Part shown: in pieces, positions 3,535 through 30,321 of the stretch
How positions within the stretch are numbered: the stretch's first letter is position 1
Layout of the letters: each line of letters starts with the position of its first letter
Assembly (NCBI GenBank): GCA_002421785.1
Contig: DIRZ01000002.1
Location: 1-32,000, forward strand
Source: Candidatus Saccharimonadota bacterium
Lineage (GTDB): Bacteria; Patescibacteriota; Saccharimonadia; Saccharimonadales; Saccharimonadaceae
Length of the DNA: 32,000 bases
Reading direction: 5' to 3'
Notes under the pieces: generated by a model
The model's input: the letters and a program-made list of their open reading frames with translations, nothing else
Database searches by the model: none
What the model was told of the DNA's origin: nothing
Position numbers and translations under genes: made by a program

Positions 3535-6180
3535 CTACTTTAGATGGATGACACCACTATCGCCGCTTATCTCACGCATACCATCATCAGGCGCATTCGA
3601 TTCGGCGGCCGGTGCGTTGGTCGCGGTAGCTGATGTTTTTGATTTACGTTTGCGAACTCGTTTGCGCTTGGGTTTTGTCGGCTCGACGTCTTTTTCAGTC
3701 AGTGTGGTGGGTGGAGCGGTCACGTGGGCCAATGCCGTATGCGCAGCGTCATGTGCGGGTGATTCGTTGCCGGCCGGCTTCGCTGGCGTGGCGGCTGGCG
3801 GCGGAGTGGTCGGCTGGGTGTGCGCCCGCGGAGCCGAGTGATGCGCAGACGAGGGCTGTGGATTACCTAAGTACCGCTCATTGACATAGCGGTCAACGAA
3901 TTCCCGACTGACACCATAGCTGCGCCGACTATTCATTATTATGTGCTCTGAATAATCAGTCTGTTGCTGCGGCAAATTGAGCGATATGGCCGAGAAGCCT
4001 GGCACTTTTTCGCCCTCTATCGTCATGCTGATGACGAAATGACGGTTATGCATGTGGACTAGGTCGTATTCCAAGAATTTCGGCTCAAAGTACTTGAGCA
4101 TGCTGCGGGCATCGTCAGCGCTCATCCTGAAGGCAATTATCGAACCTACGTTGCCAAACACGGCATCCTTTACTTCTACCGACATCTGGGCGATATACTG
4201 GTTGGCCACTGTCAAGTTGAGGCCGTATTTGCGCGCCTCACTCAATATGGTCGCGAAACTATCGGTCGCGAAGTTTTGGAATTCGTCGACGTACAGATAA
4301 AATGGCTCGCGCTGATTAGCTGGGATGTCGGCTCGGCTCATCGCCGCTAGCTGTATCTTGGTGACTAGTAGCGCTCCGAGCAAACTGGCGTTGTCCTCAC
4401 CGACCAAACCACGGCTGAGGTTGACGATAAGAATCTTGCGCTCATCCATGATCTGACGGATATTGAAGCTGGATTTGGGCTGTCCGATGATATTGCGCAC
4501 CAGCGGGTTAGCCGTGAAGGCGCCGACCTTGTTGAGCACTGGTGCAACGGCTTCGGAGGCAAACTTATCATTCCAGCTGGCGAACTCAACCATCCAGAAG
4601 TTGCGCACCACCGGATCCTGGACATGCTGCAGCACCTCGTTACGAAAACGTTTGTCGGTAAGTATGCGCGTGATATCCAGCATGGTCGCATTGGGGTAAT
4701 CAAGCAGTGCTAGCAGGCTGTAGCGCAAGATGTACTCCAAGCGCGGTCCCCAGCTATCGAACATCCGCTTTAGTACGCCAATCAATTCGCTGCAGGTATG
4801 TGTCCGCAATTTCGGGTCATTGACCTCCATGGGGTTGAAGGCGATTGGGAAGTCGATATCGGCCGGATTGAAATAAATCACATCATTGGCCCGGGATGGC
4901 GGAATACGCTTGAGTGTACTGACGGCATAATCACCGTGGGGATCGATGACGGCAAAGCCGTACGGGCTATAAATATCGGATATGGTCAGCAGCTCAAGTA
5001 GGCCGGACTTACCGACACCCGTCTGCCCGATGATGTAGAGGTGGCGTCCACGATCCGTTCGAGGCAAGCCGAAGACCGTATTGTGGCCACGGAAGTTAGT
5101 ATTAGCAACAGGGCTGATATCGGGCCGTGGCGTATCACCGACTATCGGCAAATTGGCCGGTGGCTCAGCCGTCTGGCTGGTGGCCCACAGTATGTATGGC
5201 GTCTCGACATTGGTGTGCGGCAAGTGATACAGCGTCGCAACTTCTTCGATGTTCAGCGTGTAACCAGTCCTGTCAAAATCACGAGTCCGATACAAACGGC
5301 CAACGTATGGATCGTCCGAGATTTTCTTGGCCTCGAAACCGTTCAGATAGGTTGTGTTGAATTGCTTATAGCTGGCCACTATCGATTGCATCTGCAGCTT
5401 GGCTTGCGGCGGCGGGACGTTACCGCGATAAACAATCTTGATCGCCGCCTCGAAGGCGAGCTTGTGGCTTTTTTCCTCAGCGCTGTTAGCTCGGGCTTGG
5501 TCATATTCGGTCAGCTTAGCGGCCGTTCCACCTGGGCCATAATCGGGTGGCCGCCACAGTGCCTCAATCATACTAAGCGGGTTGGATGAACCGGCGCCAC
5601 CGCGCAATTTGGCGACATAGCGCTCACTTTTACGGTGCCAATTCGAGGCGGCGGGGCGAATCAAGAGCTGGATCCAGGCTTCCTCGTCAGCCTTGAACTT
5701 GGCCAGGGTGGCGGTGATGGCGGCCAATGGGTCCACCTCGAAACTTTGGAAAGTCTTGATTGGCAAGGCCTCTTGGCCTGTCATACGAATTTCGGTAGCC
5801 AACATGGTGGTATATGGTTCTTGGTTCGCCGTATAATCCGGCACCTCACTGATTTGGACCGTCGGATATTGGGCGTAGATTTGTTCCTCGACGAAACTTT
5901 TCAGATAGGTCGGCACCCAGACATAAAAGCCGATGCGTTGTTTGATGACGGCTATCTCAAAGCTCAGGCACTCACGAAAAGCCGGTTGCCAAGCTTTCGG
6001 CGACGGTATCGTCAGCAGACCATGCAAGCTGGCAAACATCTGCTCGGCGGCTAGCTCTTTTTTCTCGTTAGTCCGTGGCACCTGCAATAACAGCACTACC
6101 CCGTCATCATCGGTATCTTGCGGTTTTGGAGTTGGTACTCTTGTGTCTGCCATAGCAAATAAAGCCGCCAAAGCGGTCAT
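3535..6180 (-). CDS. VirD4/TraG/TraD-like P-loop ATPase (FtsK-HerA superfamily) with a disordered basic tail
   Basis: Motifs are Walker A GQTGVGKSG, Walker B-like LYVDEFQNF, and ARKYGLNLTVANQ. The N-terminal ~350 aa form a non-ATPase domain. The last ~120 aa are Pro/Ala/Thr-rich and contain KPKRKRVRKRKSK. Confidence 0.6.
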   Translation of the reverse strand: MTALAALFAMADTRVPTPKPQDTDDDGVVLLLQVPRTNEKKELAAEQMFASLHGLLTIPSPKAWQPAFRECLSFEIAVIKQRIGFYVWVPTYLKSFVEEQIYAQYPTVQISEVPDYTANQEPYTTMLATEIRMTGQEALPIKTFQSFEVDPLAAITATLAKFKADEEAWIQLLIRPAASNWHRKSERYVAKLRGGAGSSNPLSMIEALWRPPDYGPGGTAAKLTEYDQARANSAEEKSHKLAFEAAIKIVYRGNVPPPQAKLQMQSIVASYKQFNTTYLNGFEAKKISDDPYVGRLYRTRDFDRTGYTLNIEEVATLYHLPHTNVETPYILWATSQTAEPPANLPIVGDTPRPDISPVANTNFRGHNTVFGLPRTDRGRHLYIIGQTGVGKSGLLELLTISDIYSPYGFAVIDPHGDYAVSTLKRIPPSRANDVIYFNPADIDFPIAFNPMEVNDPKLRTHTCSELIGVLKRMFDSWGPRLEYILRYSLLALLDYPNATMLDITRILTDKRFRNEVLQHVQDPVVRNFWMVEFASWNDKFASEAVAPVLNKVGAFTANPLVRNIIGQPKSSFNIRQIMDERKILIVNLSRGLVGEDNASLLGALLVTKIQLAAMSRADIPANQREPFYLYVDEFQNFATDSFATILSEARKYGLNLTVANQYIAQMSVEVKDAVFGNVGSIIAFRMSADDARSMLKYFEPKFLEYDLVHMHNRHFVISMTIEGEKVPGFSAISLNLPQQQTDYSEHIIMNSRRSYGVSREFVDRYVNERYLGNPQPSSAHHSAPRAHTQPTTPPPAATPAKPAGNESPAHDAAHTALAHVTAPPTTLTEKDVEPTKPKRKRVRKRKSKTSATATNAPAAESNAPDDGMREISGDSGVIHLK

Positions 6181-10832: not shown

Positions 10833-11603
10833 ATGACAGATATAATTTTATTTTTGGCGGGCATACTCGTAGGCGGCATCAATGCCATCGCTGGTGGTGG
10901 CATGCTAATCGGGTTCCCTATCCTGCTAGCGACCGGCATACCACCGCTGATGGCCAGTGCCACTACCGGCGTCATCGTACTACCCGGCAATATCGCGGCC
11001 GCGGTCGGCTATCGCTACTATTTGCGCAAAGTTCCGCGCAGCTATTTACTGCTGATTATACCGGTCATCATCGGGGCGGCCACCGGAACCATCCTTCTGC
11101 GTCACACCTCGCACGAAGCTTTTGCCAAATATATTCCTATCCTCATATTGCTGGCCGTCATCATCTTCGCCTTTCAACCCTTCTTGAATAAGTACGTCCA
11201 CGGGAACGTACATGGCCCGGCCAAAGTTCGTCGCCGCGTTTGGCCGATAGTTTGGACTGGTCTTGCCATATTTCCGCTAGCGGTGTACGGCGGATACTTT
11301 GGCGCGGGCTTTGGGTTCATCATGCTGTCGTTCTTTGGCTTTACCAGCTTGCGCGAACACCTCCACCGCATGAACGCGCTGAAAACTGTCATGACCACCT
11401 GTGTCGCCGCCACCGCGCTCGTCGTCTTGGTGGGCTCGGGATTGATCGACTGGCAGCACGGCATGGTAATGGCGGCCGGCAATCTCATTGGCGGCTACTA
11501 TGGCGCGACGGCCACCCAAAAGGTCAGCCTGCCAGCGATTCGCATCGCAATTCTCGTCATCGGTTGTGTCACAACCGTCTACCTCGGCCTCCGCAGCTAC
11601 TGA
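10833..11603 (+). CDS. TauE/SafE (TSUP, DUF81) family anion exporter
   Basis: The 256-aa protein has about 8 TM segments, an internal repeat and glycine-rich GGGMLIGFPILL. Confidence 0.8.
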   Translation: MTDIILFLAGILVGGINAIAGGGMLIGFPILLATGIPPLMASATTGVIVLPGNIAAAVGYRYYLRKVPRSYLLLIIPVIIGAATGTILLRHTSHEAFAKYIPILILLAVIIFAFQPFLNKYVHGNVHGPAKVRRRVWPIVWTGLAIFPLAVYGGYFGAGFGFIMLSFFGFTSLREHLHRMNALKTVMTTCVAATALVVLVGSGLIDWQHGMVMAAGNLIGGYYGATATQKVSLPAIRIAILVIGCVTTVYLGLRSY

Positions 11604-11793
11604 ACCGTAATCGTTATCCGTCACCGGCCTAGCCAACAGGGGCGGCTTTATCCTGGCGCAGGCGACAGTCAAGACAAGACCGCATTAATCCATGCTCCTA
11701 AATTTATTTTTTCAGACGACTATGGGGCCTAGACGCACGTCGCAAGATACGTCCAAGGCCTATGGCGCTTGTAGGCTCGACGTCGGCTTCAAA

Positions 11794-12117
11794 TCAGATG
11801 CCGGAATTTACGACAGCTATCCAATCGACTGCGATAATCAAGACGTAAACTGCAAATGTACCTATAAGCCAACTGTCGGGAGGTCGTTTCCTCAATTGGG
11901 CTCTTGCTACTAAGGTTATGGTAAGCAAAACCGCGGGCACTCCAGATAAGACTGCAAACAATTTCGTTCCCACTGGAGCTAGCCCAGGATCTGGCGTAAG
12001 CCAAAGGACGGTATCCCATACGAAGAAAAACGAAGAGATAGCAATGAAAGCATATGCCAATACTTTTACAGGGGTTAGTTTGTTTGGTTTTTGTGATTCA
12101 AGTTTTTTATTGCTCAT
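11794..12117 (-). CDS. Hypothetical small membrane protein (3 predicted TM)
   Basis: It is a 107-aa ORF with hydrophobic stretches in an AT-richer segment. I recognise no motif. Confidence 0.45.
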   Translation of the reverse strand: MSNKKLESQKPNKLTPVKVLAYAFIAISSFFFVWDTVLWLTPDPGLAPVGTKLFAVLSGVPAVLLTITLVARAQLRKRPPDSWLIGTFAVYVLIIAVDWIAVVNSGI

Positions 12118-12240
12118 ATAGAAATGATAACGGATTAATCCATTATTAGGGTTATGGACTTATCGGACGGCGAACATCCACGCTGAATAAGTATTGGCTC
12201 TGCCGACGGCTATATATAATGAAGCAGCACGTATTCATAG

Positions 12241-12269
12241 TAGTCAACAGGGGCAAACCATGCTACAAT
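12241..12269 (+). promoter_or_regulatory. Candidate promoter of the tRNA-Met locus
   Basis: The arrangement is TAGTCA-N17-TACAAT with an extended TGc. The -10 box lies in the loop of AACAGGGG/CCCCTGTT. Confidence 0.4.
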
Positions 12270-12390
12270 TTCCCCTGTTCTACATGAGACAAACCTGCGG
12301 TTTTTCTCATCGGCCAATCGGCAAAGCCGAGTTTGCAAGCAAACCAAGTTGGCCTGCTCTTTTCCCCTAACGTGCGGAGAGGAGTACGTA

Positions 12391-12515
12391 GCACCCCAAA
12401 ATCTTGAACCAAGGAGCCAAAGCGACTGTTCGTGATTTTGAGAGGAGGGCCGTAGCCGCAAGTCGAAGCTTTTGCGATACCTCGCAAAACGAGACAGAAG
12501 CGTACGGACCGACGA
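12391..12515 (+). ncRNA. Conserved structured tRNA leader element, copy 1
   Basis: It is about 80% identical to 28576-28705. Shared blocks are TTGAGAGGAGGGCCGTAGCCG, CGAAGCTTTTGCGATAC and GACCGACGA. A hairpin TTTTGCGA-TACC-TCGCAAAA lies at 12470-12489. It is non-coding because the two copies differ by indels. Confidence 0.5.
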
Positions 12516-12548
12516 GGCGGCGTAGCTCAGTTGGTTAGAGCACATTCA

Positions 12549-12657
12549 CATTTTGCATTTTCTTGTGGCGGCGTAGCTCAGTTGGTTAGAGCACAGGACT
12601 CATAAGCCTGGGGTCACAAGTTCAAGTCTTGTCGCCGCTACCAGAAGATGCAAAATG
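12549..12657 (+). repeat. 14-bp inverted repeat bracketing the inner tRNA
   Basis: The arms are CATTTTGCATTTTC (12549-12562) and GAAGATGCAAAATG (12644-12657). They form 13 Watson-Crick pairs plus 1 G-U. Confidence 0.85.
12567..12643 (+). tRNA. tRNA-Met(CAU), elongator type, intact
   Basis: The fold is GGCGGCG TA GCTC AGTTGGTTA GAGC A CAGGA CTCATAA GCCTG GGGTC ACAAG TTCAAGT CTTGT CGCCGCT A CCA. The D arm and variable region match E. coli elongator tRNA-Met as I recall it. Positions G1-U72 and A31-G39 are non-Watson-Crick. Confidence 0.85.
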
Positions 12658-12772
12658 CCAGGACTCATATTCGAGGACACGCACAGGAGCCTGCTCCGAG
12701 CATGCCGCAAGGATATACAACGTATAAGCCTGGGGTCACTGGTTCAAGTCCAGTCGCCGCTACCAAAATAAG

Positions 12773-12796
12773 TACCCGAATTCGTCGGGTATTTTT
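12773..12796 (+). terminator. Intrinsic terminator after the tRNA locus
   Basis: The hairpin is TACCCGA-attcg-TCGGGTA followed by TTTTT. Confidence 0.75.
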
Positions 12797-12799
12797 ATT

Positions 12800-12814
12800 T
12801 GGTAGTATATTTTC
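12800..12814 (+). promoter_or_regulatory. Extended -10 TGgTAGTAT placed 6 nt upstream of the Nudix ATG
   Basis: The sequence is TGGTAGTATattttcATG with no SD. Confidence 0.45.
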
Positions 12815-13348
12815 ATGAGTCAGTCAGAAATGATCGATGTGCTCGATCAGGACGGCAATGTCATCAAGACGATTAGCCGCGAAGAGGCCGAGCGCGATAA
12901 CCATCTGACCGAGAACGTGTTGGTTTTCGTCTTTGATACTCGTGGCAATGTATGGGCGCAACTGCGGCCAATGACGAAATCGCACTACCCCGGTCGCTGG
13001 GACATATCGGCTTGCGGCGGCGTGGTCAGCGGCGAATCTTCAGCCGAGGCAGCAGAGCGTGAAGCCCTGGAAGAAACCGGCCTACAGTTAGACCTAAAAT
13101 ACGTCGAGACTTTCCTGAATGTCTTCCCAGGCGATAACGGCGAAAATCGAAAGCGTCTGTCACATCTATATATCGGCATCAGTGATGAGGCACCAGCAGC
13201 CAACGACGAAGTCGATGACTTCAAAGCCTGGCAGCTCGATGACTTATTCGCAGACATCGCAGCAAATCCAGATAAATACATACCATCGTTCGAAATAGAG
13301 CTAGAAAAAGCGTTGACCGCTTACGCCGCCCGAACCAACCAAGCTTGA
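12815..13348 (+). CDS. Nudix hydrolase
   Basis: It carries a complete Nudix box, GGVVSGESSAEAAEREALEETGL (GX5EX7REUXEEXGU). Confidence 0.88.
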   Translation: MSQSEMIDVLDQDGNVIKTISREEAERDNHLTENVLVFVFDTRGNVWAQLRPMTKSHYPGRWDISACGGVVSGESSAEAAEREALEETGLQLDLKYVETFLNVFPGDNGENRKRLSHLYIGISDEAPAANDEVDDFKAWQLDDLFADIAANPDKYIPSFEIELEKALTAYAARTNQA

Positions 13349-17361: not shown

Positions 17362-17552
17362 TGGTCTTGGGGCGAGGATATCGCGTATCTGCGGCGCACT
17401 CCTCCCTGCGGTACTCGCCCAATAGATGAGAGCACCTTTTGGGCTCCGTTCCTCGTTCGCCGAACCTTATGGTTCGTGCCCTACTCCCGGAAATCGAAGA
17501 TATGAATTAAAACAGTCCTCCATTGGAGGGCTTTTTTAATTCATCTTGGTTC
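17362..17552. repeat. Island-flanking direct repeat, copy A (degenerate tRNA-fMet 3' fragment, about 170-bp unit, then TGGTTC remnant)
   Basis: Positions 17394-17552 align without gaps to 27755-27913. I count 9 mismatches outside a flipped 29-bp hairpin. Positions 17362-17379 are a decayed copy of TGGTTCCGGGGGCAGGAC. Confidence 0.85.
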
Positions 17553-17728
17553 ACCAAATACATTCGAATTGGAACCTTATCTGTTCAGAGTTGGTTAGAT
17601 GGTTAGGGTTATCAAGGGGTGAAATCTCCGCAATTTACTCTGCCGTGCGAGACTAGAACTCAGCCAGTTTAGCTCCTCATGTACATTGAGTAGCTTCCCG
17701 AACGCTTAGAGGTTAATGCTTCATCTTC

Positions 17729-18297: not shown

Positions 18298-18510
18298 CTA
18301 ATGCACTAACATCCGAGCGCTCTGCACCAACAATGATACACCAATCAGAGCCGCAACTAGCCTGTTAACTATGATTGTTTTTTGATCGAATTTTATACCC
18401 CAAGCTTCGTTTTGGACCTTAGCTATATATCGAGCCAACTGGCCGTTAAAGATTATTAGGCTTAGTCCAGCTACAGCTACTAACACTATTTCCAATTTAT
18501 CATGTGCCAT
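18298..18510 (-). CDS. Small 2-TM protein, putative immunity for orphan toxin tip 2
   Basis: The 70-aa ORF lies immediately downstream of the orphan tip. AGGA lies 6 nt upstream. It shares the QNE(A/M)W motif and architecture with 19219-19434. Confidence 0.6.
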   Translation of the reverse strand: MAHDKLEIVLVAVAGLSLIIFNGQLARYIAKVQNEAWGIKFDQKTIIVNRLVAALIGVSLLVQSARMLVH

Positions 18511-18526
18511 ATTATTCCTAAGTATA

Positions 18527-19192
18527 TCACCATGTATAGCTCAACGAGTGGGAGTACCCTCCCGGCAAACCGATCCCATATTCATAGGAGCCATCAGCGT
18601 CACGGCTGCCACTAAGTCCCAATAGCGAGATTGACGTACTTTGGCTTAGCCCCGTCTGTAGGTGGTTGCCCGCAACCCAACTTATACCACGACCCGCGCT
18701 CGAGATACCAATTGATGCACGGAGATGAAGTGTGTGGTCACTATTGAACGCAACCCCTAAGGATACTCCCACTCCATACCTTGCAACACTTACGTCAATC
18801 GCCGTGTACCCAGTAATAGGCACAGGGTGCGGAGCATTGTAAAGTGAATAGGCTGCTTTTAACTTCGTAATATCCGTCCCAGCCACTGTAGCCCTCTTCA
18901 TCGCCGTAGAGTTATCCTTCTTGGCAATGGATACCGTTTTGTAGGCTACCAGTATCCTGGTTGGGGCAGCGCTTGCCTTCTGTAGCCGTGATCCACCTGG
19001 TGCTGACTGGATATTCCTGCCGCTTGGTGCGGGTTGCACTGCACTAATAGTCCCTGCCGGTTGCCAGAAAGATACGCTCCCGGCGGGGCATTGTAACATA
19101 CACATCCCACTCAGGTCATTGAAGTTTATTGGGTCCAGTGAGTAGCTGTAGGCATTGGCATTACCGCCTATGACTGGATCTTTGGATGTAAC
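18527..19192 (-). CDS. Orphan Rhs C-terminal cassette 2 (28 codons of Rhs core end plus about 190-aa toxin tip)
   Basis: The frame is open from 19192 and reads [30 protein letters not shown]. That stretch is nucleotide-identical to the main Rhs gene. A divergent tip follows. The only start is the junction Met (19105). Confidence 0.75.
   Translation of the reverse strand, partial: VTSKDPVIGGNANAYSYSLDPINFNDLSGMCMLQCPAGSVSFWQPAGTISAVQPAPSGRNIQSAPGGSRLQKASAAPTRILVAYKTVSIAKKDNSTAMKRATVAGTDITKLKAAYSLYNAPHPVPITGYTAIDVSVARYGVGVSLGVAFNSDHTLHLRASIGISSAGRGISWVAGNHLQTGLSQSTSISLLGLSGSRDADGSYEYGIGLPGGYSHSLSYTW
19041..19191. repeat. 151-bp perfect direct repeat, copy a
   Basis: It is identical to 20920-21070 (offset 1879). 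It spans the Rhs core-end/toxin junction. Confidence 0.95.
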
Positions 19193-19218
19193 TCAATCGA
19201 TCACAGTCAACCAACGGA

Positions 19219-19434
19219 TTATTGGTGTGACAATGCCTTGACTACGCTCGATATAATGATGAGGACACCGACAAGTCTAAACATCCATATGGAAATCTGT
19301 ACAGATCTCTCGCCGAAATGGAGTTTCCACATCTCATTCTGAGCCTCTATACTCCTTCTGCCAAGGGTATTCGCAAGAGATACAACTATTATCCCGATTA
19401 ACACTCCCACTACTAGTACTTCATGATTATTCAT
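19219..19434 (-). CDS. Small 2-TM protein, putative immunity for orphan toxin tip 1
   Basis: The sequence is MNNHEVLVVGVLIGIIVVSLANTLGRRSIEAQNEMWKLHFGERSV... The track start at 19440 is a TTG, and I prefer ATG 19434. Confidence 0.6.
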   Translation of the reverse strand: MNNHEVLVVGVLIGIIVVSLANTLGRRSIEAQNEMWKLHFGERSVQISIWMFRLVGVLIIISSVVKALSHQ

Positions 19435-19471
19435 TACCAACTCATTATACCTAAATCAATTTACATACTAA

Positions 19472-20071
19472 TCAATAGATTCTCGTGTACGTTATTGATG
19501 CTCCGGGCATGCCGAAGCCTGCAGCCCTTAACCCCTGATAATTAACACTGGCGCAAACGAAGATGCACAGATCTAATGTAACATCCGAGCCCTCTGTGAC
19601 ATTGCCAGAACTCACCGAGTAGCTAGGGCTAAAGCCTGGAGTGCCAATTCCGCCCTGCCAATATCTGCGTGTCACAGTCCCATCAGTAACCAGGCCGTAA
19701 CCTCCAACTATACCGCCGAACCCTGCGTTTACGCCGATAGCTTTACTAGAAGGCCCGACTTCAGTGTGCTGTGGCGCTCCGTATAACTCCATCGCAGGCT
19801 TCAACTTAGTAATATCCACTCCACTCACGGTCGCCCTACCCATCGCTGTAGAGTTATCCCTTATGGCTACCGTGGCCGTCCGATTCGCTACCAGTATCCT
19901 ATTCGATGAAGTGCTGGACTTCTGGATACTCGTACCGCTCCGGGTGGATTGGTAACTGCTGGTAGTTCTGGTTGGCTGGACAGCTCGAGTAGTAGCCGCT
20001 GGCTGTAAGTATGAAGTACTGACAGTACATTGCAGCACGCACATCCCACTCAGGTCATTGAAGTTTATTGA
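19472..20071 (-). CDS. Orphan Rhs C-terminal cassette 1 (toxin tip with a short core remnant)
   Basis: It reads ...[10 protein letters not shown] then CVLQC... It shares a 30-bp perfect match with the main junction. The middle part (NSTAMGRATVSGVDITKLKP) is homologous to cassette 2. The track's N-terminal extension to 20185 overlaps the immunity gene and is rejected. Confidence 0.7.
   Translation of the reverse strand, partial: SINFNDLSGMCVLQCTVSTSYLQPAATTRAVQPTRTTSSYQSTRSGTSIQKSSTSSNRILVANRTATVAIRDNSTAMGRATVSGVDITKLKPAMELYGAPQHTEVGPSSKAIGVNAGFGGIVGGYGLVTDGTVTRRYWQGGIGTPGFSPSYSVSSGNVTEGSDVTLDLCIFVCASVNYQGLRAAGFGMPGASITYTRIY
20041..20070. repeat. 30-bp junction repeat, third copy
   Basis: ACATCCCACTCAGGTCATTGAAGTTTATTG also occurs at 19102-19131 and 20981-21010. 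Confidence 0.9.
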
Positions 20072-20108
20072 ATTGAGTGAGTGGGCATTTTTCAGTAGTA
20101 GAACCGTG

Positions 20109-20408
20109 CTAGTTCCGGGGGTGCTTGCGGTAGAGTATAAGATTAGCCCCCATAATAGCACCAACCAGAAGGTTAAGCCCCGCAAACTCTAATCCAAGTT
20201 TTAGATTACTAACAAGCAGGTAGCCTAAAGGAACGCTAAATACTGCGACAAGAAGCAAAAACCCGAAGTAAGTAGGAAGTCGGGACCTATCGAAGTAAAT
20301 GTCGCGATTTATTATACCCATACGGGGACCACGTATCTGGGAAATAAGAAATAAGACCGTCGCAAATATAAAAGCGATAATTACTAATAGCGTTTGATTA
20401 TCTCTCAT
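20109..20408 (-). CDS. 3-TM small membrane protein, putative cognate immunity of the main Rhs toxin
   Basis: The 99-aa ORF starts 19 nt after the Rhs stop. AAGGGG lies upstream. Confidence 0.65.
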   Translation of the reverse strand: MRDNQTLLVIIAFIFATVLFLISQIRGPRMGIINRDIYFDRSRLPTYFGFLLLVAVFSVPLGYLLVSNLKLGLEFAGLNLLVGAIMGANLILYRKHPRN

Positions 20409-20426
20409 TCATTTCCCCTTCTAATC

Positions 20427-23400
20427 CTAATACTTTAATCCACTAAGATAACCTCTAACATCCTCTTGGATGGAAGTATCTGTTACATCATTGACCTTCT
20501 CGCCTATTGTCATATATGTGAGGAAACCACCCCACGCACCCTTTGTACAACCACTTACAGCCGCAGCTGGGATGCTTACACCCTCCGTAAACATTGCTGC
20601 CATCATACCTGCTGCCATGAATGCCCCACCGGTATATACACATCCCTGACCTACAGCCATTACCGCCCCTCTTATTGAATAACTGCCATTACCAGACGGT
20701 GCTTGCACTACGGCAACCGGAAGCGACTGAACCAAAGGTAACTTGATTCTAACCGGTTTGACAGTGGCCACCGCAAGCCTCGTTGAACTGTCGTAGTGCT
20801 TCGCTATTACAACTGTTTTATTCGCTACGTTTTGTCTCGTTAATGCTGCGCTAGACTTCTGAACGCTAGTCCCCCTCCCTGCCGCCTGATAACTACCCGC
20901 TGTCCGAACTGGTTGTACCGCACTAATAGTCCCTGCCGGTTGCCAGAAAGATACGCTCCCGGCGGGGCATTGTAACATACACATCCCACTCAGGTCATTG
21001 AAGTTTATTGGGTCCAGTGAGTAGCTGTAGGCATTGGCATTACCGCCTATGACTGGATCTTTGGATGTAAAGGCACCGAGTACTGCTAGGTAGACTCTGG
21101 CACCCATTTGAACAGGAGCAAGCCCCATGCTGGTTTCTTCAAGCTTTTGAGCTGAACCACCATAGCCGTAGCTGCCGTCGAGGGTATTGGCTACCCTAGT
21201 GCCACCGGGCAGCATGTTGCCGTATGGGTCGTAGGTGTAGCTGTTGAGCGGACCGTTACCGGTGCTGGTGTTGGCTCCCGCACCGTCCAGTGTGAGTAGT
21301 GTACGGCCAAGTATGCTTGGTAAGCTGTACGTCTTTTGAGCACTACCGGTTTGTAGCGGATGAATGGTCAACAGCACACCACCAGGTAAGCTTACAGACT
21401 TCTCCACGATATCCCAGTTGGCATCCCGAATTATATCCGGAGAGTCTCCGTCACCCGTATAGCCGTAGTACCAGTAGTTATTAACCGTGTACGTTCCCGC
21501 GTTGATATCGTCGTGTTCACGGTACGTGATACGGCCCGTGACGTCACGGTCATAGTACATGGCATCACCATTCTGATTACTATCGTAATTGACCAGGCAC
21601 CAGTTGCGGTCGGTGCTGTCGTAGCACATTCGGAGCGGCGTAGTGCCCGTGCCAAGATAGGTCATATTGCCATGGCCGTCATACTCACTGTAATTGGCCA
21701 CAGGATCGCTACTGGCAACAATCTGGTCGGCATAGTTGTAGCAATACTGAGTAGTCGTTCCGTCCACCGTTCGCCAAGTCATGTTGCCATTCTTGCCCGC
21801 ATTCGGGTTTATGCCGTTGCTAGTGCCACAGTATGTGGCATTTTGACCATCATAGCCGTAGGCATATGAGTCCGAGCCGACGGATGCTGCCGTAAGGCGC
21901 CCTGCTTTGTCGTAAGTATATGCCTGGCTAAGGCTATTTGCGCCGGATTGGACGACGTCTGTCAGTGTTTTACCACTTTGGGTGAAGGTCTTGGTATCGG
22001 AAATGGTCGTGCCATTAGCCAGCGTGTAAGTTAGTGAATTATCACGCTGCATACTATCGTGGCCCACCTGCGCACCTACTTGCTGCCCGGCATTCGGGTA
22101 ATTGACGTGGTCTACACGTCCGTATTGATCGTATGTAACGATTGCGTACGTTGTGCCGTCTAGTACATAGCTCGCCAATCGATACAGATTATCGTATGTA
22201 TATTGCTCCGTGCCCAGATCGCCAACTTTTTGTGTTAGTTGACCGGTGGCATTGTAGTCGTACTCCGTCCAGTTACCATCCACGTCGGTGTAACCCGTAG
22301 TTCGGCCCAGCAAGTCAACGATAGTGATGATTGAGCCGCTACTGTCCCATACTACTGATGTGAACGGATCACCATTACGAGCGTAGTCGTGGCTTACTGT
22401 CCGCGCAGATCCATCACCGATTGCGGGGATAGCCATAGTGCTAACACGGCCACGACTGTCATAAGTTGTGCAGGTCCATGGGTCACTGTTGTAACGATTC
22501 GCCACAACGCGTCCTGCATCGTCATAGATTACTTCGTACACGCGTCCGGCGGTGCTCCCGTCTGGGCTCGCTTCCGTACGGGTCTTCATGAAACCAGCTT
22601 GCTTGTAGGCCTCAACTGTAGTCGTGCATGGGTCATCTCTTGTTTCGGTAGCACCATAATAGGCATAGCTATAGGTCGGGTTGCTCGATGGGCTGCCTGG
22701 CAAACTACTGGATGTTTGGCGCAAGTAGCTTCCGCTTGCCCCTTGTTGCTCATAGGTAGTCTGAGCAGTCAGATTAAGCCCCGTAGGATCAACTGTCGCA
22801 GAGCGAGCCAAACCTAATTCTGGATTGCTACCGTAGTCTGTCGTGACCGTTGTGTTGCCTATAGTGCTATCGTAGACCGTGCCTGAGGTCGGTAAGCTAT
22901 ACCCAGGCTTTAAATAGCCACTCCAGTCACTTGTTGCGCCGAAGCCTCCTTGTTGTTGCACCGTGAGCGTGAACGCACCCGTAACACCTGTTCGGCGATA
23001 CGTTTCAAGCTGGAAACGTTTTGGCGAACTATCAGTGACACTAAACGTTGAATTTGATGTGACACGAGTCGTGGTACTATCTGTCCACTGGTTCAAGATA
23101 AGCTGATCGGCTATCCAAAGCCTCACACCGTCAGGCGTCGTGGCGCTGATCGTGTAGGTACCAACCGGTAACCTTAGCTCGCCACTTGCGCTGAAGCCTA
23201 TGCCCTGCTTACCCGATGATGCCGAAATTGGCGGACTCGTAAAGTCATTCGTTAATGTGCCCGGAGTAGTGGTGTTGATACCAGTAGTGTGCAATTTTGG
23301 AGCGCCATACAGGATACCTGAGGTATCTGTTGATTGCTTAGAGTAGTCAAACCAAGCAACGGATGGGCCTACAATGTTTTCGTCATATCCGGCGTCCGAT

Positions 23401-26400
23401 CGAGCAACTTGTGAGGTATATGTCGAGAGAGGCACCTGATGGGTGGGGTCCGAGGTGTCATACCAAGTACTTGGCGCCGGGCCATAATTGGTTACTGGGC
23501 GATCCTCGTCGTCGTATATGGTCGTGCTCTTCAGGCCAAGATTATTTGTGGAACCGTAGACAAGGTCTTTGTTTTCATCCCACTCTACCGAAGAACTTTG
23601 GTTATTATTATCCGTGACCTTGGTTGTACGGTACAAATCATCGTACTCAACACGCTTCATGAAGCCATTAGGTTCAGTTGCACCCGTAATATTTTCTTCA
23701 GTTGCTCCTGCATATCCAGGCACGTCATTGCCGTTTTGATCCACATATCCTTTTAATCCAGGTAGGTACTTCAAAGTGTACTCAATCCTTGAGCCGTTAT
23801 CGGCTGCGTCTGGCATCTTGACTGATGTCACACGACCTAACTGATCGTATGTTAACGAAGTATTCGCATTGTCATTATCCGCACGATAACCGGCTGCAAT
23901 CGCATCCATCGCCAAACTATCGCGAACTGCGTTCAGACGGTAACCTACCGTACTACCTGAACCATTAGTGACTGCTTCGTAGCGAAGATCGGTTAGGTTG
24001 CTACCGGGCTGAGCAATACGCGCCAGTTGGCCTTGGATGTAATAGAAATGGGTGCTTCGCCCATCATTGGTCGTCACGGCACATAACATTCCTGTTGGAG
24101 TCGTTGCATCGAAACCGGTAGGCGACGTGCCGCAGGACGAACTGCCGCTATAGTAGAGCGTCGCGCTACGAGATTGGTCTACTCCGTCGATTATTTGCTG
24201 AAGATGCGTTGGAGTTCCGCCGTATACATACTTGAGTGCAGCTGGAGTCCTGTCATCGCTCGAGCTCGTTGCGGACGACAATGTCCCATCGCTATTGAAC
24301 ACGTAAGTCATTCCGTCAATATCTTGGAATGTGAAAGTGCCATCTGCATTCCGTACCAAATGGCCGTCCTCATTTACTGGAGGCGTGTAGCCTGAACCCG
24401 TCCATTTATATTCATGGGTAGCGCCCGATGCGTCACTGAGGATAACACTGTTAAGACTAGGTTTTAGATGGTCGTAATTTACTCCCCCAGTTGAGCTTGT
24501 ACTAAGCTGCCAACCAGCAGGTAGCACTTGAGCATTTGGCGAAAGCCAGTCAGAAGGCGTAATTTGCGCCGGAACGGTTGTCCCATTTGAAGTCTTCATC
24601 CAAAATTCAAAGCTGGCAGTAGTGGCTTGGTCAAAATATTCGATGGTTATTGGTACTTGAACGCCTTGGGTAAGATTCATGGTTGTCGTACCCCATTGCG
24701 CTGTTGAAGGCGCTGAGTGGGCGGTCCAGTTGTTATAGACAATGGTGTTGCCTGTACCAACAGTTATTTTTGCTCCATCATCGCTACGCACTCCGAACAA
24801 GTATGTACCGGTTGTGGGTACGGTAAGATAACCAGTCCATCTTGCTAGAAAATCAGCCGGACCACCAGCAACAGGCGCGCCCGTTCCCCAGTTGAAGCTC
24901 AGTAATGGATCCGTTCGCTTCATCACCAAAGGATTACCGCTCGAGAACGTGTTCGTACCATCTAGCCGTGCAAAGTAACTGCCCGTAAGCCCATGCTCCG
25001 TAGCTGCGGGGCGTACTCCAGTCTGCAACCAATCAGATGGAGCAATCTGATCTTGGCCGTCAGGCGTTTTTACGTGCAGCTGGACATTCGCGGTGCTTGT
25101 GTTTTCCCAGTACAGTACGCTAATGGGTACCACCTGACCGGCTTGGAGCGTTGTCGCGGAGCCATAGGTTATGCCCGTGTGCCACGCCGTGCTGTTGTAC
25201 ACTTGCACGCTATTCACAGTTACGCTCATCGTGTCATCGTTAGTGCCCCCGAAGTAATAGCTCCCTGTTTGCGGAGCGATAAAATAGCCATCCCATTGAG
25301 CTGAGTAGTGATCATTTACGCTTGTAGTGAACCCTGGGTTACCTGTGCCCCAATCGAAGTCAACATTTTGGTCTACTCGTGTTATAGCTGGGGTACCACT
25401 GCGGGTATCGTTTGTCCAATAACGGCCGACTAATCCGGCTCGCGAACGAAGAGGAGAGTTGTAGTCCATAGTCACTCCAAGTGACCCGCCCAAAGCATCA
25501 GATGAATGGCTCATAGCGCTGGTCGATACATTACCAGTCGCAAGATCCACACTTACTGGCCCGATATCTTCATATGTCTGAGTTTTATCTTTCCCGGTGC
25601 GTGTATCAATCCTGAACGCCACAGAGGTTCCCCATGCGCTATAGCTAGCAGTAATGGGGTCATAAACCCTGGCTTGAATGTAGTAAGTATTGCCGTCTTG
25701 CAACACATTGTCAGGCGACGTCCACTGACGAGCATTGAGTTTGCCTGAGTCAATAATCGTACCGTTTGCGGTAGGGCCGGTGCTTACCAAGAACTCGTAT
25801 TGTAGCGGCGTGCTGCCATTTGGGTTTTGTTCATAATTAACCGTGAATGATGGCTGAGTTTCGACATACACCTGATCGTCCACGGGGCTTGCTATGCTAG
25901 GCGCTGCTGGGGGACCGCCGTAAGTAAACGCGACATAGCTTCCCGTCGTACCACCGGTGCCCGGATCAAAGTTTTTGAAAGAATTCGTTGTGCCATCTTC
26001 CCCACCAAGCATCAACCATGCACCGAAGTCACCAGCAGCAATTCGCGCCTGATAAATATTAGTGACATCGATGTTCCCTGAAGTTGCAATATTACCGGAA
26101 TCATTAAAGTGGCCACCCTCAAGACAACTTGAAAAACTATTCAAACAAGTTGCATGCCCAACATAATAAGTATGAGTACCAGTAGCCCCGGTCCAAAAAC
26201 TCGCCTGGCGCTGTACTAAATGAAGGCTTGCTTGTGTTAAAAGATTGCTGGAGTTTTTGAATTGATCATATTTGGCATAGAACGCGCTGCGCCAATATCG
26301 CAGGATGTTATTGCTGTCGTACAAAGAACCGGCATATGGGTTACACTCCGTCGAAAGACAGATAAAGCCATCACTCTTAAACGACTTGTAGTTACCACTT

Positions 26401-27563
26401 GTCCGTGTGCCGAAGTTACTGTAATAGGTACTCGGGTCAATGACCGCCGGGAACGCCTTGTCGGGGAGATCCGCCAAATAAGAATCTTCGACGGAAAGCT
26501 TAATGGTATCCGCCGAGTATGTTTGCGTGAATTTACCAGGCTCCGTGACCATACCAAAATTATTTAGAATCAAGTTTGCCGGAGTTACATTGAACTTTTG
26601 GTCTAGGGCTCCGTCGATCGAGTAGTATGTACCAACCTCCTGCTGCCCCTGGTGTTTACCCAGCGTGCCACCGAGCAGTTTGAAACTAAAACTATGGGCG
26701 GAATCTTTGTTCTTGAGAATAATATTCTCCTTCACAGCATCGGTTTGGAGAGAATATTCAACATCCACACCATCCCAAAGGTTGTAATAGTGCACCGTTT
26801 GTTGGCCGTCGGCTTGGGTAATGACGGGCGTGACCGAGTTGGCACCTTCGGGTACATACCCTATCTGATCTGTGCCCATTTTGATTCGAACCATGCCTCC
26901 TGCAAAATCACTTGGCGCGAAGCGTGCCTGCCATGTATTCCCCGATGTCGTGAAGAACGCCTCATTCGTAAACCACGATTCAATATTCCCCCACGTCTTG
27001 CCAAAGATATTTCCAGAGTCAGCAGCGTTTTTGTCTTCGGTGAGGCCAAGATCGATAGTCTTCCACTCTCCGTCCACTTTATAGAAATGAGGAGCGAAAT
27101 AATTCTTGCGCGTAATTGAGCCGTCCGCATTAACTTGGCTCTCCGATGTCGCAGTACGTTCACTGACAATTTCATGAGGGGTGATCGGCGCTTGTTTTTC
27201 AATTGTGCCAAGCGCCTGTTTGCTAGCACCTATGCCCGAATTGCCTCCAAGTACGGAAAGCACATCGATACCGGTCGTATCGGCAGCGGCATCGCCACTG
27301 CCTTTTGTGGGTTGCATACCACTTGGGTAGTTAAAACTATGCTCCTTTGTTGTGGCGTCTTTATCAATGTGGAGGCGCTTAGAGGCATTAGTAAAGTCGT
27401 GTTTCTTATACTGGATATCTACGGCAATGGCAGAAGCGCTGGGAGCACTAAGTCCAGCCAAGAACAACAGAAGAAAAAACAGCGCTGTGAGGCGCTGTAT
27501 AGGTAATTTTCGTAATCTCGTAAAGTTTAGGAGTTTATTGGTAACGCTGAACAATCGGGTCAT
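20427..27563 (-). CDS. Sec-dependent Rhs/YD-repeat polymorphic toxin (WapA-like) with three PA14-like domains
   Basis: I start it at ATG 27563 (MTRLFSV...), which has AGGAGA 6 nt upstream. The signal peptide is [21 protein letters not shown]. Many YD repeats are present ([45 protein letters not shown]). The core-end motif is [29 protein letters not shown] 184-aa tip follows. Confidence 0.92.
20920..21070. repeat. 151-bp perfect direct repeat, copy b (inside the main Rhs gene)
   Basis: It is identical to 19041-19191. Confidence 0.95.
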
Positions 27564-27687
27564 TTTCGGTCTCCTACACAAATTTACTACCGTACTCATA
27601 ATAAGCTTAAGATTTAGTTAAGCACAACCGTTTTGTTCTAAGTCATTGTGGAAAAGTTTACGATACCACTCTGTGCGTGGTTTCGAA

Positions 27688-27721
27688 GAAAAAGCACTCA
27701 CCGTTTGGTGAGTGCTTTTTT
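27688..27721. terminator. Bidirectional intrinsic terminator
   Basis: The sequence is AAAAAGCACTCACC-gttt-GGTGAGTGCTTTTTT. Confidence 0.8.
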
Positions 27722-27913
27722 GGTTCCGGGGGCAGGACATCGCGCGCACTTTGTGCGCACTCCTCCCTGCGGTACTCGCTAAAAAGATGCGAGCACCTTT
27801 TTAGCTCCGTTCCTCGTCCGCCGAACCTTACGGTTCGTGCCCTACTCCCGAAAATCGAAGATATGAATTAAAAAAGCCCTCCAATGGAGGACTGTTTTAA
27901 TTCATCTTGGTTC
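27721..27913. repeat. Island-flanking direct repeat, copy B (18-nt duplicate of the tRNA-fMet 3' end plus the about 170-bp unit)
   Basis: TGGTTCCGGGGGCAGGAC at 27721-27738 is identical to 27908-27925. The rest aligns to 17394-17552. Confidence 0.9.
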
Positions 27914-27982
27914 CGGGGGCAGGACTCGAACCTGCGACCTCGTGGTTATGAGCCACGCGAGCTGCCGCTGCTCCACCCCGGG
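27908..27982 (-). tRNA. Initiator tRNA-fMet(CAU)
   Basis: The reverse complement reads CCCGGGG TG GAGC AGCGGCA GCTC G CGTGG CTCATAA CCACG AGGTC GCAGG TTCGAGT CCTGC CCCCGGA A CCA. The C1/A72 mismatch is typical of bacterial initiators. It closely resembles E. coli tRNA-fMet as I recall it. Confidence 0.85.
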
Positions 27983-28575: not shown

Positions 28576-28705
28576 GCAACCACCCAATTTTTCAAACCAA
28601 GGAGCCTATAACGACTGTTTGAAAAATTGAGAGGAGGGCCGTAGCCGTGGACCGAAGCTTTTGCGATACTTCGCAAAAACAAGGCAATGGCGTACAGACC
28701 GACGA
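28576..28705 (+). ncRNA. Conserved structured tRNA leader element, copy 2
   Basis: It is the homolog of 12391-12515. A hairpin TTTTGCGA-TACT-TCGCAAAA lies at 28659-28678. Confidence 0.5.
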
Positions 28706-28781
28706 GGGGGTGTAGCTCAGTGGTTAGAGCAGCGGGCTCATAACCTGTTGGTCGATGGTTCAATCCCATCCACCCCCACCA
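28706..28781 (+). tRNA. tRNA-Ile2(CAU), predicted TilS substrate
   Basis: The fold is GGGGGTG TA GCTC AGTGGTTA GAGC A GCGGG CTCATAA CCTGT TGGTC GATGG TTCAATC CCATC CACCCCC A CCA. The D loop and TTGGTCG variable region resemble E. coli tRNA-Ile2 as I recall it. The Met versus Ile2 assignment is an inference. Confidence 0.7.
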
Positions 28782-29688: not shown

Positions 29689-30321
29689 TTACATTTCCCG
29701 ATAATGGTACTTCAAGAGGATACGCAAAATGACCATGCTAATCATGCGAATAACGATAATAAACATGAGGCCAAAACAGATAACAATTGACCAACCAGCA
29801 AAGTCTGGAGACCATGCGGGCGAGACAAAGCTATACCGGTACTGCGCAGCGCTCGGAAGCTGCAATTCGGCCGAAGCAATTTCGTCGGCAGGATGTTTGT
29901 TAAGTTCGTCCACATAGCAGCGCACGTATGCCGGGGACCACCCGTTAAATTGGGGTTTACAGACTTCATCGGCCGCCCGACGAATTTCAAGTGCCTTAAC
30001 CGAGCCGCTGCTGCTCGCCTGGGTGGCCTGCCGCTCCACGTCACGGTTGTACTGTTCCTGTAGGTAGAACACCCCTGTATTGGCATTCATGTGCGCAGCA
30101 GAGTACCGCTGTAGATCGTAAATACGTGCAGCAATGTCATCGACGTTCCCTGTTTTATCGGCTGCAGCCACTGCGTGACGCCGGGCAACCATGCCAGTGT
30201 TGTTGAGCCGCAGGAAGGTGGCAGCGAGGAATACCATCAGGATAAGCAGCACGACAAGCCGCCAGGTTTTTACCTGTTGCAACCGCTTGATACTGCGACG
30301 TACCTTGCGTTTATCTGCCAC
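29689..30321 (-). CDS. Hypothetical bitopic membrane protein (N- and C-terminal TM)
   Basis: It is a 210-aa ORF with no motif that I recognise. Confidence 0.5.
   Translation of the reverse strand: MADKRKVRRSIKRLQQVKTWRLVVLLILMVFLAATFLRLNNTGMVARRHAVAAADKTGNVDDIAARIYDLQRYSAAHMNANTGVFYLQEQYNRDVERQATQASSSGSVKALEIRRAADEVCKPQFNGWSPAYVRCYVDELNKHPADEIASAELQLPSAAQYRYSFVSPAWSPDFAGWSIVICFGLMFIIVIRMISMVILRILLKYHYREM

Follow-up and report, generated by a model that had tools for sequence, protein, structure and literature searches.

A tRNA-Met gene nested within a twice-broken copy of itself in a Saccharimonadota genome, probably a relic of disrupt-and-replace invasion at the anticodon arm

An intact tRNA-Met gene with anticodon CAT lies on the forward strand of the window (the whole stretch of DNA that was analysed, 32 kb of a Candidatus Saccharimonadota genome), enclosed by the pieces of a second tRNA-Met gene. 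The inner gene, at 12567-12643 and with CCA encoded, was called by ARAGORN and matched the Rfam tRNA family at 67 bits. It is preceded by outer piece a (12516-12544), which corresponds to tRNA-Met positions 1-29 and is identical to the inner gene there, and by a 22-nt spacer, b (12545-12566), of which 12549-12566 form the 5' arm of a clamp helix. After the inner gene come, in order, trailer f (12644-12658), whose nucleotides 12644-12657 are the 3' arm of the clamp; outer piece g (12659-12669, CAGGACTCATA), which represents tRNA positions 28-38, comprising the anticodon loop and the 5' strand of its stem, and which starts exactly at the first base of that stem; insert h (12670-12726, 57 nt), situated in the anticodon loop of the outer copy; and outer piece i (12724-12765), which covers tRNA positions 36-77 in the form of a second allele with the T stem ACTGG/CCAGT. 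Piece i is a direct repeat of 12602-12643; taken as 12602-12646 versus 12724-12768, the repeat is 45 nt long, 89% identical, and begins at anticodon-loop position 36.

The neighbouring genes encode MurJ, a type IV coupling protein, FtsH, TilS, TauE, Nudix, Maf and an AI-2E transporter, and the relatives of the Nudix protein all belong to Candidatus Saccharibacteria/Saccharimonadales and other Patescibacteria. The window holds three tRNA(CAT) genes (12567-12643, 27908-27982 and 28706-28781). Judged by similarity to E. coli sequences, the inner gene resembles elongator tRNA-Met and the gene at 28706-28781 resembles tRNA-Ile2; that at 27908-27982, with C1 opposite A72, is presumably the initiator.

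A conserved structured leader of about 120 nt (12395-12515, forward strand) ends exactly at tRNA position +1, the start of piece a. Its paralogue at 28583-28705, about 83% identical, likewise ends at +1 of tRNA 28706-28781, and pairing in the first helix of the leader is kept through four double-sided compensatory changes between the two window copies. The leader gave no Rfam match in a scan of 11600-12900 at E <= 10. Because it abuts piece a just as it abuts the intact tRNAs at 28706-28781 and in contig L056 of the sister lineage described below, the outer 5' piece marks the native position of the gene. A promoter and a terminator had been proposed in the earlier note to enclose the whole locus. 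The intrinsic terminator (12770-12800, forward strand; 12770-12794 plus a T run) was confirmed, and it is common to the sister lineage described below. The promoter-like site (TAGTCA-17-TACAAT, 12241-12269, forward strand) is a weak one and the only candidate start of the transcription unit; however, it proved no better than shuffled expectation, two such sites being found against 1.8 expected in shuffles.

The pieces 12516-12544 (29 nt), 12661-12669 (9 nt) and 12727-12765 (39 nt) had been claimed to make up a 77-nt tRNA-Met, and re-joining them gave exactly this. The joined outer copy agrees with the inner tRNA-Met(CAT) at 73 of 77 positions, and the re-computed differences are the two compensatory T-stem pairs only (four positions; ACAAG/CTTGT in the inner gene versus ACTGG/CCAGT). 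The sizes of the two interruptions, 116 nt and 57 nt, also held, and the loop-deleted anticodon arm GCACAGGA-GCCTG said to lie inside the second of them was found at 12681-12693, within h. The layout as strictly contiguous pieces fared less well: the reconstruction is exact, but the pieces overlap (1-29, 28-38 and 36-77 in linear tRNA numbering). As a consequence of the junction duplications, in which CA occurs twice and ATA occurs twice, each junction is free to slide by 2-3 nt. All breakpoints of the outer copy fall in the anticodon arm, at 28/29, 32/40 and 36-38, and the outer pieces are without random decay or random substitutions. Such a nested layout cannot be a product of chance. The lack of random substitutions fits a recent event and would also fit selection. 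The compensatory T-stem changes imply that the outer 3' piece was once part of a functional allele from a different lineage.

The earlier note described the clamp as a 14-bp helix of 12549-12562 with 12644-12657. These 14 pairs were confirmed, one of them being G-U, but the helix was understated, since it extends further. Of the 18 nucleotides at 12549-12566, 16 agree with the reverse complement of 12640-12657 (ACCA plus trailer), a score which none of 2000 shuffles reached, and the clamp stacked on the acceptor stem forms a helix of about 25 bp. In the clamp, the inner tRNA's own 3' flank is repeated in inverted form. Flanking inverted repeats elsewhere, examined at 33 tRNAs in related loci, reach only 4-9 bp. 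The clamp was also considered as a general tRNA processing stem, which was ruled out because it is unique among the 33. In the RNA, the clamp and acceptor helix would probably prevent wrong pairing between the inner tRNA and the identical pieces on either side of it, and would probably offer an entry site for a double-strand RNase. Four additional bases, TTCA, stand at the junction of a and b beside the inverted-copy match.

The clamp-flanked tRNA might be taken for a minimal non-autonomous mobile cassette, which inserts into its cognate tRNA gene, complements the damage and is mobilised in trans. At about 114 nt, with inverted ends of 14-18 bp unlike the other inverted repeats among the 33 tRNAs and with a 2-nt (CA) duplication on its flanks, the unit has something of this appearance, and the logic would be that of tRNA-dependent lysogeny (PMC10865867). 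However, the inverted repeats are subterminal rather than terminal, neither the window nor 66 loci nor viral contigs yielded a second copy of the unit of b, tRNA and f, and one instance cannot demonstrate mobility. We regard this explanation as quite improbable.

Since the source is metagenomic and there are short repeats within the locus, mis-assembly of tandem or allelic tRNA-Met copies might account for the arrangement. The locus, at least from 12467 to 12860, was found at 100% identity in seven independent assemblies, which come from different samples and different assemblers: an ENA contig (L044/L057; k141), a JGI draft (L058) and the Logan runs L045, L046, L048 and L049. Moreover, b, f and h are unique, so that mixing of alleles could not make them, and the k-mers used were longer than the internal exact repeats (29 nt and 16 nt). 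The seven agreeing assemblies refute the mis-assembly that the earlier note had listed, and the chance that it nevertheless explains the locus is negligible.

A sister lineage was obtained through a protein database search with Nudix (91% identity; P0002, with cluster members P0114 and P0115), which also recovered the identical protein from other assemblies. There, in contig L056, the order is the leader (...GACCGACGAG), one uninterrupted tRNA-Met, the AAATAAATACCCG terminator and Nudix, with no additional DNA, i.e. an unoccupied site. The flanking DNA is about 88% identical between window and sister lineage, and the leader hairpin co-varies in the comparison of window with L056 (TTTTGCGA-TACC-TCGCAAAA versus TTTTGCC-GAGCA-GGCAAAA). 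Relative to L056, the window has two stretches more, one of 51 nt (b and a second copy of positions 1-29) and one of 122 nt (f, g, h and i). The earlier note had suggested checking in relatives whether the pieces and the clamp are conserved; the nested architecture is absent even from the sister lineage. As L056 has a plain single gene in the same leader/terminator frame, the nested form is lineage-specific. With two lineages compared, the simple arrangement of L056 may be the ancestral one, or it may be the result of a clean-up through two repeat-mediated deletions. At Nudix identities of 69% or less, the tRNA upstream of Nudix is a different one (Gly, Arg or initiator Met) or is missing, and those loci are therefore uninformative on this tRNA-Met gene.

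The sole tRNA of L056 is identical to the inner gene of the window, with the T stem ACAAG/CTTGT, and the same holds for L050. L056 thus carries the inner (A) T stem and not that of the terminator-proximal piece, which means that an extra assumption is needed under any history: either a B-type allele was resident in the window and A arrived with the cassette, or A was resident and the B-type pieces were borne by the element. An intact B-type tRNA was not found in the window, in the compared loci or in viral contigs. Some contigs end at the boundaries of the pieces. Two of them are from other samples: contig L059 (12.5 kb; Logan SRR5323206), which has the same sequence as the window, breaks off exactly at 12544, and L047 begins exactly at 12724. 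The first base of L050 is tRNA position 1, and that of L054/L055 is tRNA position 72. A k = 31 graph would not be broken by repeats as short as those of the window, and the contig ends therefore suggest that alleles without an insert co-occur and diverge at the piece boundaries. The junctions predicted for such alleles are leader GAGCACA followed by GGACTC in the one without b, and GGACTC followed by ATAAGCCTGGGGTCACTGG in the one without h.

The reading favoured by the earlier note was a split or intron-like tRNA. In its full form, RNase III, P and Z would free the inner tRNA, the clamp would hold the outer halves, and, with h taken out, ligation of the pieces would give a second tRNA-Met. 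The pieces do give a perfect cloverleaf with compensatory T-stem pairs and zero random substitutions, a single transcription unit surrounds all of them, and many uncharacterised insertions in rRNA genes of CPR bacteria have been described (PMC11270868). The arrangement also recalls the intron-containing, split and tri-split tRNAs of archaea (Fujishima et al. 2009, cited in PMC10714607): there are three ordered pieces, the interruptions sit at the canonical 37/38 position and in the anticodon stem, and a helix joins the flanks of one interruption. In contrast to the archaeal cases, the window locus is bacterial, has no BHB motif, holds an intact copy inside an interruption and is not conserved in the sister lineage.

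The BHB motif (3-4-3) was sought at both interruptions, all junction slides and bulge registers being enumerated. None was found at either boundary; the best candidate has three of four central pairs, with flanking helices of 0/3 and at most 1/3. When 11600-12900 was compared with Rfam at E <= 10, only tRNA and chance-level matches appeared, with no group I intron, group II intron or self-cleaving ribozyme, and a scan of the window at gathering thresholds likewise gave only tRNA and chance matches, with no tmRNA, intron or ribozyme. The core of a group I ribozyme (Rfam Intron_gpI) is typically longer than 200 nt; the inserts of the window are 57 nt and 116 nt. Among the 24 ORFs scanned in the 32-kb window, no Pfam match to EndA- or RtcB-type families was found.

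Further, insert h sits in the anticodon loop without a helix to direct its removal, and the outer product could not decode even with the inner tRNA released by RNase III, P and Z and the halves kept together by the clamp. Nor is the interrupted gene the sole one, since it encloses an intact copy. In L050 and L056 the only gene is uninterrupted, and an intact copy stands alongside in every analogous case. The split or intron-like reading therefore failed every test run, whether on BHB motifs, on intron and ribozyme families, on the sister lineage or on the intact copy, and a functional split tRNA appears highly improbable. It is just as hard to credit that the outer gene is not dead, i.e. that the 25-bp clamp and RNase P/Z cuts act on it, that h is removed by some CPR activity yet to be named, and that the pieces are joined or held together. 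If it were alive, a bacterial tRNA would be matured from a nested, twice-interrupted gene without BHB motifs. A split tRNA would be the first for bacteria; the evidence points away from it. What the evidence supports is another hypothesis of the earlier note, namely a dead tRNA with insertions and recombination scars in the anticodon arm.

Broken tRNA copies were surveyed in 43 Nudix-anchored loci, fragments being sought within 500 nt of an intact copy. At least 7 of about 30 tRNAs in these related loci have a fragment of 18 nt or more beside the intact copy; several such genes are in L001 (Gly), L009/L033 (Leu), L010 (Val), L035 (Leu) and L042 (initiator Met), and the tRNA-fMet of the window also has a displaced 3' fragment (27721-27738). 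Fragments of tRNA next to intact copies are common in related Patescibacteria. In L010, a second copy of tRNA-Val with a compensatory acceptor-stem change follows directly after the intact one and is disrupted by hairpin insertions rich in GC. Neither in the window nor in the compared loci were further copies of b, f and h found. A likeness of h to the 57-nt segment before tRNA-Gly in L001 was examined as possible homology and dropped, as it is not significant (z = 0.7).

In L042 and L009, a small ORF lies between a decayed 5' fragment and the intact tRNA, and this ORF encodes a GIY-YIG nuclease (Pfam E = 1.6e-17 and 1.3e-15, respectively). It starts at about position 28 of the tRNA in L009 and at 36/37 in L042, which are also the two places where the outer copy in the window is broken. 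From tRNA position 4 on, L042 agrees with L012, L041 and L043 at 100% identity, and upstream it is unrelated to them, which makes the edge of the tRNA a recombination boundary. Three further homologues of the nuclease brought the sample to five independent loci. The nuclease of L062 is 60% identical, and the layout of L042 is repeated there: direct repeat, hairpin, ORF, intact tRNA. The direct repeat of L062 is 33 nt long and consists of the promoter and positions 1-10 of tRNA-fMet. In both loci the first seven bases of the tRNA recur in inverted form as the arms of the hairpin, and these arms co-vary with the tRNA (CCCCGCG...CGCGGGG in L062, TCCCGCG...CGCGGGA in L042). L063/L064 (nuclease 54%) has an interrupted tRNA-Cys-like copy, an intact tRNA-Cys, a terminator, the GIY-YIG ORF and a 3' part running from the anticodon arm onward. 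A direct repeat of 39 nt and 92% identity, with its start in the anticodon loop, bounds the unit; in layout this is the closest analogue of the window. No tRNA was found at the fifth nuclease locus, L065/L066. Thus a broken tRNA copy, an intact tRNA and a GIY-YIG gene stand together at four of five independent nuclease loci (L042, L062, L009/L033 and L063/L064). A search of the 32-kb window by tblastn with two of the cassette nucleases gave nothing below E = 1, so that neither a GIY-YIG gene nor a remnant of one was detected there.

The main rival is that integrase-type att scars produced the 3' repeat and a template switch produced a and b. In its steps, the A allele was resident, and a tyrosine-recombinase element with an attP mimicking 28-77 (B) integrated with a crossover near the 3' end, leaving a regenerated tRNA and a displaced-looking g and i; the element then collapsed to some 15-80 nt, and h would be a second scar, lying in the att core. 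In the template-switch step, replication or repair copied the 3' flank in inverted orientation and then re-copied positions 1-29, giving a and b. The direct repeat of the window, 42-45 nt long and extending between the anticodon loop and CCA, is of the kind that is classic for tDNA (PMC4383910), piece g begins exactly at the anticodon stem, similar displaced 3' fragments occur at the tRNA-fMet of the window and in L035, b equals inverted ACCA plus f at 16 of 18 positions, and the A allele exists as a single gene in L056. Against this, the scanned ORFs near the locus include no integrase (they are TauE, Nudix, Maf or without a Pfam match), the repeats are only 80 nt apart, classical tDNA integration does not yield a 5' fragment, and the TTCA between a and b is left over. 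At least three to four separate events would be needed, versus two insertions for the nested model. We therefore consider this rival unlikely, though worth keeping in mind.

Known tDNA integration scars (Islander, PMC4383910; fragments reviewed in PMC9897764) resemble the locus in the direct repeat of the tRNA's 3' part (anticodon loop through CCA), which comes after the intact tRNA and differs at few positions, in the empty site of a relative (L056), and in the second example in the window's genome, at tRNA-fMet. They differ from it in several respects. The window locus has 80 nt between the repeats and no integrase, it has in addition a 5' fragment (1-29), its displaced copy is itself interrupted, and its pieces surround the intact gene instead of lying on one side.

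The explanation we prefer, at a probability of roughly 0.68, is that the locus is the relic of a disrupt-and-replace invasion of a tRNA-Met gene at its anticodon arm, with a nuclease-type cassette as the most likely agent. Ancestrally, the order would have been promoter, structured leader, one tRNA-Met gene, terminator and Nudix. Foreign DNA would then have entered the anticodon arm of the outer copy twice, near 28/29 and at 36-38, in one or two invasions, the first insert bringing a complete, clamped tRNA-Met of the same kind, so that the inner gene would now supply the function. The junctions of a with b and of f with g restore no tRNA, and the insert holds a complete tRNA-Met(CAT). The whole unit is probably transcribed as one RNA, from which only the inner tRNA would mature, the inner gene being presumably the sole working copy at the locus. 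It looks like a scar at the level of DNA, not like a gene built for splicing.

As to the agent of this invasion, the most likely candidate is a disrupt-and-replace cassette like those that related Patescibacteria still carry intact, where a small free-standing GIY-YIG gene travels with an intact tRNA and is located within or next to broken copies of it. In the window the nuclease gene is missing, and the short remnants b, f and h would be all that is left. Inverted copies of tRNA ends occur in the L042 and L062 cassettes, and the clamp of the window is a feature of the same kind. This most likely link to GIY-YIG genes is drawn by analogy with genomes whose Nudix is only 50-65% identical.

Two known systems come near to a disrupt-and-replace invasion. 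In tRNA-dependent lysogeny (Guerrero-Bustamante and Hatfull 2024, PMC10865867), a host tRNA is likewise broken without being restored and a same-isotype tRNA is supplied. In contrast to the whole prophage, tyrosine integrase and core of about 10 bp in that system, the window has a 116-nt insert that encodes no protein, the replacement tRNA hardly differs from the broken one, and the host is a CPR bacterium, not an actinobacterium. Scans of viral contigs with the tRNA, b plus tRNA, the intact B-type tRNA and h gave zero matches each, and only generic tRNA similarity was found in a phage database; nothing of the 116-nt insert points to a temperate phage beyond this generic likeness to phage and viral contigs. 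In the second system, free-standing GIY-YIG enzymes (T4 SegB, PMC2330249; the non-intron insertions in CPR rRNA genes, PMC11270868), small GIY-YIG genes are likewise associated with genes for stable RNA, and in related Patescibacteria such ORFs lie beside intact and broken tRNAs whose breaks are at the anticodon-arm positions broken in the window. The window differs in having no GIY-YIG gene, and SegB differs in being located between phage tRNA genes, where it leaves no nested fragments. The Patescibacteria proteins, which are predicted nucleases, resemble free-standing homing endonucleases.

The report of insertions with GIY-YIG ORFs in CPR rRNA genes (PMC11270868) does not mention tRNA, and a literature search turned up no paper linking GIY-YIG, tRNA genes and Patescibacteria. 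GIY-YIG genes which travel with an intact tRNA and leave broken, hairpin-studded copies are thus seemingly an undescribed habit of Patescibacteria. The present locus is a compact and fully resolved example of a tRNA gene that was broken and replaced in one step. Such relics are misleading for tRNA annotation and for intron searches in CPR genomes, they are markers of hot spots of gene-order change, and they could account for part of the odd tRNA complements reported in these organisms.

Small GIY-YIG nuclease genes (80-90 aa) were found at four loci of related Patescibacteria, where each adjoins an intact tRNA as well as broken copies of it. Two of these loci concern tRNA-fMet (L042 258-623 and L062 620-1080), one concerns tRNA-Leu (L009 1213-1646, the same in L033) and one concerns tRNA-Cys (L063 454-990, the same in L064). 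The broken tRNA copies at these loci contain GC-rich hairpins. The hairpin of L042 and L062 repeats tRNA positions 1-7 in inverted form, and it covaries with the tRNA. At the tRNA-Leu locus, the 5' fragment of the tRNA has two hairpins inserted in its D-loop (L009 1231-1285), and the loops of these hairpins, CACTAAAGG and CCTTTAGTG, are complementary to each other; ahead of the GIY-YIG start codon, the two could pair as a kissing complex or adopt an alternative fold. The searchable literature gave no description of this combination of a GIY-YIG gene, an intact tRNA and its broken copies.

Broken tRNA copies were also observed at two further loci. On the minus strand of L010 (4845-5087), an intact tRNA-Val is immediately followed by a second tRNA-Val copy, which GC-rich hairpins interrupt after positions 7, 19 and 32, and whose acceptor stem carries a compensatory pair change (G5-C68 to A5-T68). 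The other locus, a tRNA-Gly(GCC) of the closest GTDB relative (L001 2666-2921), lies at the same genomic site as the broken tRNA-Met of the window, that is, upstream of Nudix. Here, the first 25 nt of the tRNA-Gly are copied upstream with their own promoter-like TACAAT, followed by three hairpins in an 86-nt block and then by an anticodon-arm fragment (positions 28-38); no ORF is present in L001 2666-2921.

In the window, two different tRNA(CAT) genes each have, directly 5' of them, a copy of a conserved leader about 120 nt long (12395-12515 and 28583-28705, about 83% identity). Its helix of 12-13 bp retains pairing between the two copies through four double-sided compensatory changes, and covariation in a second leader hairpin was seen in the sister lineage L056. 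The window leader carries AAGGAGCC in the loop and also contains the motif GAGAGGAGGGCCGUAGCC. It gave no match in Rfam, and may represent a processing signal or a so far undescribed structured RNA. Between TauE and this leader there is a gap of about 790 nt (11604-12394), in which no called gene (in the gene tables), no Pfam-matching ORF and no Rfam match was found. Such a length seems unusual for a compact Saccharibacteria genome, and the gap may represent decayed foreign DNA.

The initiator tRNA of the window (27908-27982, minus strand) has a segment of about 165 nt after it, which separates it from a displaced copy of its last 18 nt (27721-27738). The segment has an equally oriented 91% copy at a distance of 10.4 kb (17394-17552, 159 nt aligned), adjoined by a degenerate tRNA-like stretch (17553-17640). 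This pair (27721-27982 and 17394-17640) may bracket an island. The bracketed region (18500-27599) holds a PA14/GLEYA/RHS-repeat protein of 2390 aa (20427-27599, minus strand), and downstream of its gene are repeated modules (18858-21070, period about 940 nt, 70-100% identity), which resemble spare cassettes (toxin-tip or immunity) of a polymorphic toxin locus. Elsewhere, the window encodes a VirD4/TraG-like type IV coupling protein of 881 aa (3535-6180) and has an ORF with a weak Rad52/22-family match (29689-30321, E = 0.0035); each of the two could be part of mobile DNA in this region.
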